This document shows, piece by piece, positions 33,001 through 36,000 of a DNA stretch of 64,000 nucleotides. The stretch lies in the IMG/VR virus record IMGVR_UViG_3300037455_000816; one strand, given 5' to 3'. Position 1 is the first letter of the stretch. The number at the start of each line of letters is the position of its first letter. Made by a program: the position numbers. The DNA is from a virus (lineage: Duplodnaviria; Heunggongvirae; Uroviricota; Caudoviricetes).

Positions 33001-36000
33001 TAATCGGTCAGCTGGCAGAAAACGCTCCAGATGGCTCGTTTCCACCTCTCGCGGCTCCATATACTCCACCTCATAGCCCTGCGGATCCTCTGAGGTGAGC
33101 GCACCTTTGAGGGAGGGAAGATACTGGCTCCCCTTCGTGGCCAGCGCCGCCACTCCGGCGGTAATCAGCAGGTACTTCGTCGTCTTGCGGATAAACCTTA
33201 AAACTCCCATAGCAACAATCTTTAGAAAAACAATTAAAAACCCCGCCAGCTCGTGACGGGGAATTTACAATGAAAGAACACACTTAATCTGAGTAAAACT
33301 CGTCACATGCCAAGTGAAAGTGAATGTTTATATATATCGTATGAACCGTCGGCAAAGTTAATGCTTTCAGGCATGAAAACCAAAAAATCCAAAAACTGTT
33401 TCTTGATTTAACAAATTCAAGACCCTGACGGGATGGGAAACCCTGAAAGTTACCATGATCAGGAGCCGGAAACAGCCGTGAAAGCTCACTCCAAGGCAGG
33501 CCGTGAAGACTGTTGCGGGTCACTCCTGGCAGCCTTGCATACGACTGTCTTGCTCCGCTCGGGGGCGCATGGCTGCCTCGCCGATACCGACGGTCGTGTG
33601 CTGATGCTTTCCTCGCCGCCCTCCACGGTCATCATACCGGCCCTGTGTCGCCACCCCTCACACACCTCTTTCACCTTGGGGCGATGGCCGTCCCACTGCG
33701 TGAGAGCGTCAGGAAAGGCGTTTTTCGCATGACGGCAGGACTGCTGACGAGAAACCAGGTAATGTCCCGCCCTACGCCGATGACGGTCATAGATACCCGC
33801 TATCGTCGTTTTCCCACGATGGCATAGCCATGGTGAGGAAACCGGGTGTTACAATGCCCGCTTTCTCCGCACTCCCACACCGTGCGACGCTTTCCCTCGT
33901 GCTTTCCCGTAATGCTCCGTTGATGCCACCACACCCTTTGAAAAGAGGTGACGGCACCCTGAAAGGATGCCTAAAGATGTTTCCTATGCGTTATCGCTAT
34001 CGCTACAGGACATACCCGAACCAGACCGTCCAGAAGAAAGAGACCTTACCGTCATGCAAACGGATGATACTCATTCGCCCGCAAGCCGGACGGACACATC
34101 ATCTGGAAGAGCGGGGATGAAAGGATAACGGGCGATTCTCCTTCTCTTCAAGCAAAAAGACTGCGGTTCTCAGAGATAACCGCCTCATTCCGTCTTTCAT
34201 TGCTTGGAAGGACATCTGCCCGTTATTCACTCATCTTGTTTCCCGCTCTGGCGGCTGGCCCTTAAAGTATGTAGGTCGGAGGTCGGAAAGCTTTCGGACA
34301 TACCAAATACACCTTATTTGGCAGTTTTCCGCTTTTTCTTGGTCTGCACTCTGTTTCATGAAAGGTGTTCATCGTAAAGGTCACCAAAGGGCATCCTGCC
34401 TTCTTTGCCGGAGTTTTCCTCTATCTCTCATCATGTCATCCCTGCAGTCGTACTACTGTACTTCCTGGCTGCATCTGTCCTTTACTCTCTCCTTGGGGCT
34501 TTCAACCCTGTTTTCCCTCGTGGGTGGTCTTCTTCGTGAGCCGCAGCCCCGGCGGCTGTTACCTTACTATCTCTTTGTCGGTTCTTATGCTTCACCCTTT
34601 CGTGGGTCCCACTATGCCCTCTGGAAGCGTATTGACACCTTTTCAAGGGATCTGTTGGCGTTTAATCCTGTCACTCTCCACGGGATCATTAACAAAAGCC
34701 TGTCATCAATTGTTCCGGGCCTGACTGTCAAGTACTTTGTTTTTGGGCGATGTCACTCTTATTTTTCCTGTGCAAATTTAGCGCAAGCGATATTTGGCAA
34801 GTACCTCTCTGCTGCATGGAATTTCGCGTCATTATTTCTTCAGATAATTTGCGGCAGCCTTCCGCATTTTCTTCTTAACGCGGAGCTAAACAAAATACGG
34901 TTTTCCATAAATTTTCCTTGAAATTCCTTGGCCGTTACATATCTTCTCCTTGCCAGCTCTTGAAGCACCGTAAAAATTAAGTTTAACATCTAAAAAAAGT
35001 ACAATTATGAAGTCAGTAAACAATTTCGCAGTGACAGGTTTCGTCGTAAACGACGCAGTTAAGAACGAGTTCAAGAACGCCCAGGTGGCCAGATTCGGCC
35101 TGTCAATCGCCCGCACCGAGGGTAAGGGTGAGAACGCAAAGCGCACCAGCGCAATCCTCAATGTAGAGATCTGGCGCGGTAACAAGAACGCCGCCGACCT
35201 CGACCTTCTGAAGAAGGGCAACCGCCTCACCGTGAAGGGTTTCTTCAAGCCCGAGGAGTACGAGAAGGACGGCAAGACCGTTCAGAAGATCGTCTTCCGA
35301 GGAACCGAGATCACCACGGGTGATGATGAGGAGGAGACTCCTGAGACCACAGAGGAGGCGTAAGCCTCCCTCTTTCTTTCATACGATGAACGCTATTCTT
35401 TCATTTTAGTTTGACACTGAAAGGGCCAGCTGGGAAGCTCGCCCTTTTTTCATGTATGTACCGAAAGCCGGAGTTTCAACTGCCTTTTTATTGAAAAGTG
35501 TAGTTTTCAGGTCTGTTTCCCCATTGAAAAATGTAAAAACAGCAATAAAGAAGCAAACAACGGACGCTTGAAAAGCGTAGGGGAGGTGGTGCTTTCCCTT
35601 ATTCAAGTCCATCCACCGTATAGTCCTCCTGTCACCTCTTCGGGTCCGATCCGCTTGCGAGCCGTTCTTTTCCTTGCAAAGGTACAGAGGCTTCCAGCCA
35701 TGCCAAGTACCTCTCCCGTTGGTCGTTATTCCTGGCAAAAATTTGGCAGCAGCCTTCTCAGATTACTGCATAATCTGGGTATTCCGCTAAATTTTCACCG
35801 AAATTCCTTGGCCTTAGGCCGGCGGGCCAGCCTCGTGTGAAGTACCGCAAAGAAAAGAACTCAAGCGAAATCGAAGTCGAAAACGACTGATAGGATAAGG
35901 ACACACGGCAGACTTGATAAGAATTTCAAAAGAAAGAATCTAAGCTCATCTCAGCCGATAACTCCAACATCAGCGCAAGGGTAAACAAAAATATAAAGAG

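Follow-up and report, generated by a model that had tools for sequence, protein, structure and literature searches.

The stretch of DNA described here, referred to throughout as the window, is the 64,000 nucleotides (nt) of the IMG/VR virus record IMGVR_UViG_3300037455_000816, and it is a Bacteroidales mobile element. Two long repeats, copy A and copy B, lie within it with the gene ssb between them, and these are copies of a previously undescribed family of non-coding, strongly hairpin-forming elements that is found next to ssb in mobile elements of rumen Bacteroidales. Each copy of the element is made up of three domains (M1, M2 and M3), and the same window holds five other hairpins, termed leaders here, that run into plus-strand genes. 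The features on which the argument rests are the following.

33485..34125, strand unsettled with minus mildly favoured: copy A of the element (from blastn, nhmmer, domain coordinates and covariation)
33485-33654: M1 of copy A
33676-33938: M2 of copy A, the long hairpin
~33960-34125: M3 of copy A, the 3' hairpins
34737..35006, minus: ssb leader hairpin, ~260 nt (from identity across ssb loci, compensatory pairs and DNA fold)
35007..35363, plus: ssb (PF00436), the marker of the module in all related loci
35640..36001, minus: second leader hairpin, upstream of a 128-amino-acid gene and DUF2851 (from direct repeats D4-D6)
37934..38622, strand unsettled: copy B of the element (from blastn, nhmmer and domain coordinates)
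37934-38103: M1 of copy B
38121-38384: M2 of copy B
~38400-38622: M3 of copy B, with two extra small hairpins
38880..39270, minus: third leader hairpin, between copy B and the accessory-gene block (from repeat, alignment and DNA fold)
22380-22760 and 63700-64000, minus: two further leader regions, outside the ssb region

Extent, relatives and fold of the element

Copy A aligns to copy B with 83.4% identity over 608 nt (blastn within the window, E 2.7e-175, the match lying at 37971-38563), and neither blastn with copy A nor nhmmer finds a third copy in the window. The repeats have a GC content of 58-59%, with 51% for the window as a whole. A sequence-only reading of this DNA had already picked out two GC-rich repeats, and the long identical blocks that it listed as common to both copies are present as quoted. 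It also had their extents broadly right, but the homologous unit begins slightly earlier than it proposed, at 33485 in copy A and 37934 in copy B, and copy B is longer, extending to ~38622. That the differences are not concentrated at third codon positions, and that the repeats are non-coding, is borne out by 14 aligned copies, in which the variable sites fall 87/101/96 by codon phase and stops occur in all six frames of every copy (14/14). A protein-coding gene or pseudogene is therefore ruled out by the six-frame stops and the lack of codon periodicity.

The element is also unlike known structured RNAs. Rfam 15 gives no match at the gathering threshold anywhere in the window, nothing relevant at E<=10 within 33200-39300, and no match at E<=0.1 in five other loci (L012, L015, L021, L024 and L034). 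On these scans the group II intron, RNase P, tmRNA, 6S, HEARO, ROOL, GOLLD, OLE and STAXI families were rejected. An Rfam scan was one of the checks put forward in the sequence-only reading, and its result agrees with the view taken there that the repeats do not resemble rRNA, tRNA, RNase P, tmRNA, 6S RNA or a group II intron.

Relatives of the element were found in metagenomes. A 23-mer from its core has exact matches at 12 metagenome loci and none in 185,579 species genomes, a 26-mer from the core has no exact match in viral contigs, and the element has no blastn match in annotated plasmids and phages. Likewise blastn in its distant mode, with copy A and with the leader plus ssb as queries, finds no match among 72,556 PLSDB plasmids, a collection in which F-/IncI-type plasmids are assumed to be present. 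The 23-mer loci hold A-like copies, B-like copies and a third type, C, which is ~79% identical to both A and B. Because this set is biased toward copies with the same M2 core, retrieval was anchored on ssb instead. A close ssb is carried by one GTDB genome, a rumen Bacteroidales metagenome-assembled genome, and there are 59 ssb relatives in a large protein collection; contigs were retrieved for seven of these, and nhmmer profiles detect diverged copies of the element in most of the seven. The search for more copies which the earlier reading had proposed has thus led to eight clades (A-H) of homologues beyond the window, collected with nhmmer profiles and not covariance models, whose mutual identity is only 50-60%. 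Sample names, together with one protein name, suggest that these relatives come from rumen Prevotella or Bacteroidales.

It is apparent from these homologues that the domains of the element can occur apart. Clades G and H have no M1, M1-only copies lie downstream of ssb in several loci, and in one locus (L025) most of M2 has been deleted. The deletion in L025 is asymmetric, and excision of the hairpin as proof of a DNA hairpin is uninformative for that reason. Among clades A, B and C the core of M2 is almost invariant and the flanks differ by 20-30%, which is partly a matter of ascertainment and probably also of gene conversion. In clades D-H the sequence of M2 is almost entirely different, yet the ~260-nt hairpin is kept in all clades.

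The fold consists of a 5' nested multi-hairpin domain of ~170 nt (M1), in which the short motifs CACTCCnGGCA and GGTCGCC occur twice and three times respectively, a single imperfect hairpin of ~260 nt with a forked tip and a stem of ~120 base pairs (bp) with many mismatches (M2), and a set of shorter 3' hairpins (M3). For 12 copies RNAalifold predicts 167 pairs, and in 22 of these both sides have changed. M1 and M2 were each tested for covariation on 21 sequences from the eight clades, with 500 shuffles and slid partners as controls, the test of M2 being confined to the 44 pairs that can be aligned across all clades. For M1, 86.3% of cells pair, as opposed to 76.9% when shuffled (reached by 0/500) and 33-50% when slid; 18 pairs are changed on both sides, with 6-11 in the slid controls and 5/500 shuffles reaching 18, and the covariation score is 0.254, which no shuffle reached (0/500) and which compares with at most 0.101 for slid partners. 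The values for M2 are stronger, with 95.3% paired (81.3% shuffled, 0/500; 32-52% slid), 23 pairs changed on both sides (0-8 slid; 4/500 shuffles reached 23) and a covariation score of 0.476 (<=0.119 slid; 0/500 shuffles). M2 is furthermore more stable than its dinucleotide shuffles in every clade, with z-scores of -3 to -6 under RNA parameters and, for the minus strand of the eight clades, of -2.3 to -6.2 under DNA parameters. Hairpin-preserving variation is thus well supported for M1 and M2, so the earlier claim that the copies keep their hairpins where they diverge stands, and both domains pass the covariation tests against shuffled and slid controls.

Leader hairpins and the folding strand

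All ssb loci share the ~270 nt before ssb at 80-94% identity, and on the minus strand this leader forms a hairpin of 57 pairs that is 98.4% paired, with 10 double-changed pairs compared with 0-4 when partners are slid. Its wobble pairs are clearly asymmetric, there being 67 G·U on minus and 15 on plus, and the folding energy is -30.2 on minus and -21.6 on plus. The window has five such homologous leaders, minus-strand hairpins of ~180-260 nt in which the first base of the -7 box is at 34780, 35684, 38925, 22414 and 63753. Each has an exact TAnnTTTG -7 box with a TTG ~17-19 nt upstream of it, on what would be the non-template arm, and the opposite arm runs into the downstream plus-strand gene. 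The promoter consensus of the Bacteroidetes, as Bayley, Rocha and Smith reportedly described it in 2000, has a -7 element of exactly this form, TAnnTTTG. In the ssb leader the box is TAAATTTG at 34773-34780, on the 3' arm, and a -33-like CTTGCC lies ~17 nt upstream on the same strand and arm; in the second and third leaders the box is TACCTTTG, at 35677-35684 and 38918-38925 respectively, with its TTT bulged from the stem in both. The free middle bases of the box vary between leaders (AA, CC, TC). The -33 element is held in invariant stem, and the -7 box of the ssb leader is partly unpaired in an internal loop.

The template arm of the ssb leader continues into the ssb start codon, and transcription along it is predicted to begin ~35 nt ahead of the ATG. 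When the DNA is duplex, however, these boxes point in the direction opposite to ssb. On this arrangement the five leader hairpins are candidate single-stranded-DNA promoters of the Frpo type, and since they are minus-strand hairpins with their boxes on the non-template arm, the mobile element would therefore have a stage in which its minus strand is single-stranded. The two copies of the 630-nt element lie upstream of leaders, as the sequence-only reading had it, but only approximately so, because copy A ends ~615 nt before the ssb leader, and the gap between copy B and the leader that follows it (38804/38880 onward) is ~240-320 nt.

The strand on which the element itself folds is less clear than for the leaders. 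Structured RNA helices normally tolerate G·U pairs but not A·C. Among the single mismatches flanked by Watson-Crick pairs in the eight clades of the element there are 49 G·U and 44 A·C, at pairs predicted on both strands there are 8 G·U cells and 7 A·C cells, and individual pairs of M1 and M2 show intermediates of both kinds; choosing a strand from wobble pairs, done in several ways, gave symmetric results for the element. Other evidence leans toward the minus strand, which is the template strand of ssb. The unpaired positions, read on plus, are 27% A, 28% C, 14% G and 31% U, so that on minus 59% are purine and C is the rarest base, in 8/8 clades, and the single mismatches read on minus include 58 purine-purine and 25 pyrimidine-pyrimidine. 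Under DNA parameters M2 is more stable on minus in 8/8 clades and has the better z-score on minus in 6/8, and for the A/B/C alignment RNAalifold predicts 204 pairs at -207.7 kcal/mol on minus, compared with 167 pairs at -153.0 kcal/mol on plus. The minus strand is thus mildly favoured, and whether the folded molecule is RNA or single-stranded DNA is not settled. Of the earlier proposal of a large structured non-coding RNA, the structure and the lack of coding stand; that the folded molecule is RNA, or that plus is the folding strand, is not supported. Neither strand of the element has GNRA or UNCG loops, as read from the sequences.

Taken as a plus-strand structured RNA, the element would be transcribed either ahead of ssb and the accessory genes or along with them, as a large non-coding RNA or as a long cis-acting 5' leader with a role in, for example, stability, processing or antitermination. 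This reading has in its favour that in all loci the downstream genes point the same way as the element, that the pairs run through the series C-G / U-G / U-A at several places (including A5 columns 150/176, 61/224 and 47/234), that two U·G pairs in one M1 hairpin are kept on plus across clades A-F, and that for copy A as a whole RNA parameters give a better z-score on plus (-3.08) than on minus (-2.20). In clade E the element is also preceded, at 19 nt, by a TAnnTTTG box on plus, but no such box is found upstream of it in clades A, B, C, D, F, G and H, so there is no consistent plus-strand promoter. A·C mismatches on plus are as frequent as G·U, and the unpaired positions are C/U-rich and G-poor, an unusual composition for structured RNA; the RNAalifold structure has fewer pairs and a weaker energy than on minus, and there is no Rfam match. 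Taken together these points make a plus-strand RNA decidedly unlikely.

Promoter boxes are equally lacking within the element, as no TAnnTTTG box is found inside the 630 nt on either strand in clades A-H. A scan for sigma-70-type promoters gave results at chance level and was set aside. On the minus strand the sequence to the left of copy A is of interest, and to it belongs one further feature.

33241..33261, minus: intrinsic-terminator-like hairpin followed by TTTTT, left of copy A (clade A)

Terminator-like sites also lie left of the element in clade D (on minus and, as in clade A, strong; L015 2688-2673) and in clade F, where the site is bidirectional. It is conceivable but unlikely that these mark the end of a minus-strand non-coding RNA, in which the leader promoter, when duplex, would fire leftwards to give a transcript of ~1.1-1.5 kb that would include the element in reverse complement and stop at the minus terminator. 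The folded RNA itself would be the functional product, acting as, for example, a regulator of the divergent replication or nuclease genes or a primer. To the right of every copy, at a distance of 200-650 nt, there is an exact -7 box with a TTG ~17-19 nt upstream, the terminator-like sites of clades A, D and F are placed where this transcript would need them, the purine-rich unpaired bases and mismatches on minus are typical of folded RNA, and the RNAalifold energy is better on that strand. However, the element has no G·U excess on minus (44 vs 49), whereas the leader hairpin has 67 vs 15, and the spacer between promoter and element differs between clades. Clades B, C, E, G and H have weak terminators or none to the left of the element, a terminator-like hairpin (38586-38565) stands between the promoter and copy B, and the same promoter boxes are accounted for by the hairpin-promoter model. 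A near-continuous RNA duplex of ~120 bp would moreover be a substrate of RNase III, which counts against such a transcript.

Several other small motifs occur around the copies. A canonical minus-strand promoter (TTTTGG, 19 nt, TAACTTTG) lies at 33360, with the strong minus terminator at 33261-33241 ~85 nt further on, both upstream of the start of a nuclease gene at 33210, and this unit of 33241-33360 could be a small RNA, or else a short leader or attenuator. The window has five copies of a 25-nt palindromic motif, TCTTGATTTAACAAATTCAAGACCC (33404-33428 and 10802-10826, and reversed at 10994-11045, 45826-45872 and 54183-54208), each copy adjoining a canonical promoter box (33360 on minus; 11063, 45892 and 54249 on plus), and it looks like the operator of a regulator encoded by the mobile element. 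A GC-rich hairpin cluster (…CGGGCGGnCTGnCTCCCGTAGGTCGCAGCC…GGCGG…) upstream of copy B at 37815-37890 recurs with 79% identity over 75 nt at 44037-44111, where it is intergenic and inside the accessory-gene block.

The ssb module and its transfer genes

The orientation of the element is that of ssb in every copy of the eight clades where both are visible. Near-identical copies of clade D adjoin different modules on their left, namely Rep3_C, DUF3987/DUF6371 and chromosomal genes, which ties the element to the ssb module rather than to any replication initiator. A replication origin tied to a particular Rep protein is unlikely for the same reason. In L015 (1463-4000), L034, L043 and L044 a gene-free stretch of 1.8-2.5 kb separates the minus-strand replication-type genes from ssb; that of L044 contains inverted repeats (2680-2699 with 2860-2879) and repeated CCCAAATA-N5-TATTTGGG palindromes, and has no detectable copy of the element.

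The genes of the window from 11 to 63 kb are almost all on the plus strand, and among them are those expected to bear on transfer.

49019..50518, plus: Mob_Pre (MOBV-type) relaxase gene
~48860-48970: putative oriT, conserved inverted repeats just upstream of Mob_Pre
59857-62124: coupling protein gene

Topoisomerase III, RadC and a DNA methylase are also encoded in the window. A relaxase gene on the same strand lies downstream of ssb in five contexts, these being the window, L027, L028, L044/L045 and L043; the gene is Mob_Pre in L027 and L028, a NikA-like gene plus Relaxase in L044/L045, and in L043 the NikA-like gene alone is seen. For plasmid leading regions it has been reported that the transferred strand is the template of the SSB genes and that Frpo elements lie just upstream of ssb (PMC11541004), and by this rule the strand transferred here would therefore be minus.

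The conserved region upstream of Mob_Pre has the inverted repeats CCTAATAC…GTATTAGG and GCCAC…GTGGC (L027 ~4215-4260, L028 ~7100-7150, window 48900-48960). The motif CACTCCAAGG, which is repeated in M1, is also present in this region of L027 and L028, and this could be chance or a common protein-binding site. Upstream of the NikA-like and relaxase genes are iteron-like direct repeats, five each of ACTGCACA and TATTGCGGTAAGC (L044 6370-6470; L043 7575-7665), which are probably relaxosome binding sites of oriT. The plus-strand array further includes genes with GldM, FGE-sulfatase and fimbrillin-like (Mfa-like) domains (12784-17029 and 20990-22207), which is not what a conjugative element usually carries as cargo or apparatus.

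The divergent arrangement to the left of ssb bears on another explanation, that the element is a site in duplex DNA (a cruciform, a protein-binding region or part of an origin) or a selfish or neutral palindrome kept by templated repair or gene conversion. In many loci the element does lie in divergent intergenic regions beside minus-strand genes for Rep3_C, DnaB or DUF3987. The repetition of short motifs in M1 would fit such a site, as would the symmetric G·T and A·C mismatches, which a DNA palindrome predicts; the near-identity of M2 in A/B/C between differing flanks suggests gene conversion or exchange, and the modules are found apart, with M2 largely deleted in L025. A symmetric site or selfish repeat would have no need of the strict orientation to ssb, however, nor does it sit well with one clade being linked to different replication modules. 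The unpaired bases and mismatches show a purine/pyrimidine asymmetry in 8/8 clades, the hairpin outlasts complete turnover of sequence between clades, and no copies are found elsewhere in the window or outside the ssb module, so that this explanation is very doubtful.

Known systems and a possible role in conjugation

The element is most like the sso or the ssi/Frpo type of known structures, yet it fails membership of the Frpo group. The single-stranded-DNA promoters Frpo and ssi of F and ColIb-P9-type plasmids were reportedly treated by Masai & Arai in 1997. A more recent account is that of Samuel et al. 2024 (PMC11541004). Like the element they are repeated, structured, non-coding regions of a few hundred nt with a fixed orientation, forming long imperfect hairpins upstream of ssb and anti-defence genes; in the plasmids they are found in the leading region, on the strand that is transferred. 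The leaders of the window are a close match, having boxes in the stem on the non-template arm, a partly unpaired -7 and a template arm that leads into ssb. M2 provides the long imperfect hairpin of an Frpo, with covariation, in all eight clades, but host promoter boxes within the stem are found in the adjacent leader hairpins and not in the element, which is 2-3x longer, and there is no sequence similarity, with neither element nor leader having a blastn match in PLSDB plasmids. The boxes also follow the host phylum, being -33 TTTG / -7 TAnnTTTG and not -35/-10. As in the leading region of a plasmid the element lies beside ssb, which in turn precedes a relaxase gene of the same direction, although the strand transferred is here only deduced. 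No report of single-stranded-DNA promoters or origins in Bacteroidota was found in the literature searched.

The sso of ICEBs1, sso1, is structure-dependent and orientation-specific and is redundant with a second region (PMC4595007), and in pMV158 two ssos flank the MOBV cassette (PMC5737340). These ssos (pMV158 ssoA/ssoU and ICEBs1 sso1) resemble the element in being orientation-specific, structure-dependent and non-coding, in occurring more than once per mobile element and in keeping structure over sequence. Known ssos prime the complementary strand on DNA that has become single-stranded by transfer or displacement, and their function rests on structure more than on sequence. They differ in being ~150-340 nt long with two or three stem-loops and the motifs RSB/CS-6, and in being from Firmicutes, whereas the element is 630-700 nt and modular and has no similarity in plasmid and phage blastn searches, which is not a direct comparison with reference ssos. 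Of the structure on one strand in a fixed orientation that an sso would require, the fold is there and its orientation to ssb and relaxase is invariant, with the folding strand only mildly in favour of minus.

Among structured RNA motifs STAXI (RF01728) is found near ssb, topoisomerase, anti-restriction and integrase genes, and whether it acts as RNA or as single-stranded DNA was left undecided (Weinberg et al. 2010, PMC2864571). It therefore has in common with the element both the ssb neighbourhood and the same question of RNA or DNA, but STAXI is a small tandem pseudoknot with UUCG loops from Enterobacterales, the loops of the element are neither UNCG nor GNRA, and STAXI gives no match in 33200-39300 even at E<=10. 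The element is also of the 500-800 nt class of ROOL, GOLLD, OLE and HEARO, with which it has in common an association with mobile elements and a structure backed by covariation. In contrast to these it has no Rfam match, is one long near-continuous hairpin and not a multi-junction structure, and has no asymmetry of G·U over A·C.

The setting of ssb, relaxase and hairpin promoters suggests an RNA no more than it does the stage of conjugation at which the DNA is single-stranded. We tentatively favour, as something possible rather than probable, the explanation that the repeats fold as single-stranded DNA when a conjugative or mobilisable element is transferred, on the strand that moves (minus), and that they prime synthesis of the complementary strand, as sso and ssi do. 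The minus strand would enter the recipient single-stranded during transfer, the nearby leader hairpins would then drive ssb and other early genes in an Frpo-like manner, and the 630-nt element would serve as an orientation-specific priming site for the complementary strand, so that priming there would turn the early-gene block into duplex DNA.

A number of observations weigh against this proposal. The priming step is conjecture because the element lacks promoter boxes and known priming motifs; the box scan and inspection found neither, only degenerate CTTTCC motifs on the minus strand of the left arm. The element is also long, its 630-700 nt being 2-3x the size of known sso or Frpo. A folded DNA strand should, like RNA, show more G·T than A·C, and the element has no such excess; M2 alone is symmetric between the strands, and the z-score of copy A, the U·G pairs kept in the M1 hairpin and the box before clade E, all given above, speak for plus. 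The minus promoter at the right and the minus terminators at the left in clades A, D and F would fit a minus-strand RNA equally well. The identity of the transferred strand is taken from gene order, the orientation of ssb and the leader hairpins, and upstream of the relaxase and NikA-like genes no nick site (ATCCTG-type patterns) was found, only the iteron-like repeats.

A wider proposal, which is somewhat doubtful, is that mobile elements of rumen Bacteroidales carry a two-part system of control by single-stranded DNA, new to this phylum, made up of hairpin promoters and a separate folded element of 650-700 nt that is either a new class of giant sso or a new large non-coding RNA. The -33/-7 hairpin promoters would be on only while the incoming strand is single-stranded, and would serve ssb and the early genes; if the element is a non-coding RNA, the same promoters, once duplex, would transcribe it, so that one segment could have different outputs in each state.

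The fold of the element is solid and the family is new, and the hypothesis of a role in single-stranded DNA is made specific by the hairpin promoters that surround it. Whether a conjugative element becomes established in a new host depends on how early genes are expressed, and the second strand made, from the incoming single strand, and the cis-elements known for this (Frpo/ssi and sso) are almost entirely from Enterobacterial plasmids and from rolling-circle plasmids and integrative and conjugative elements of Firmicutes. The five hairpin promoters and two large folded elements of the window, along with eight clades that keep one fold, provide sequences with which the idea can be tested. If the element is instead an RNA, it would be a new class of large structured non-coding RNA with strong covariation and no Rfam counterpart. 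If the hypothesis is true, then the Bacteroidales, which dominate gene exchange in the gut and rumen, would have their own versions of these cis-elements, built on their unusual promoter grammar.

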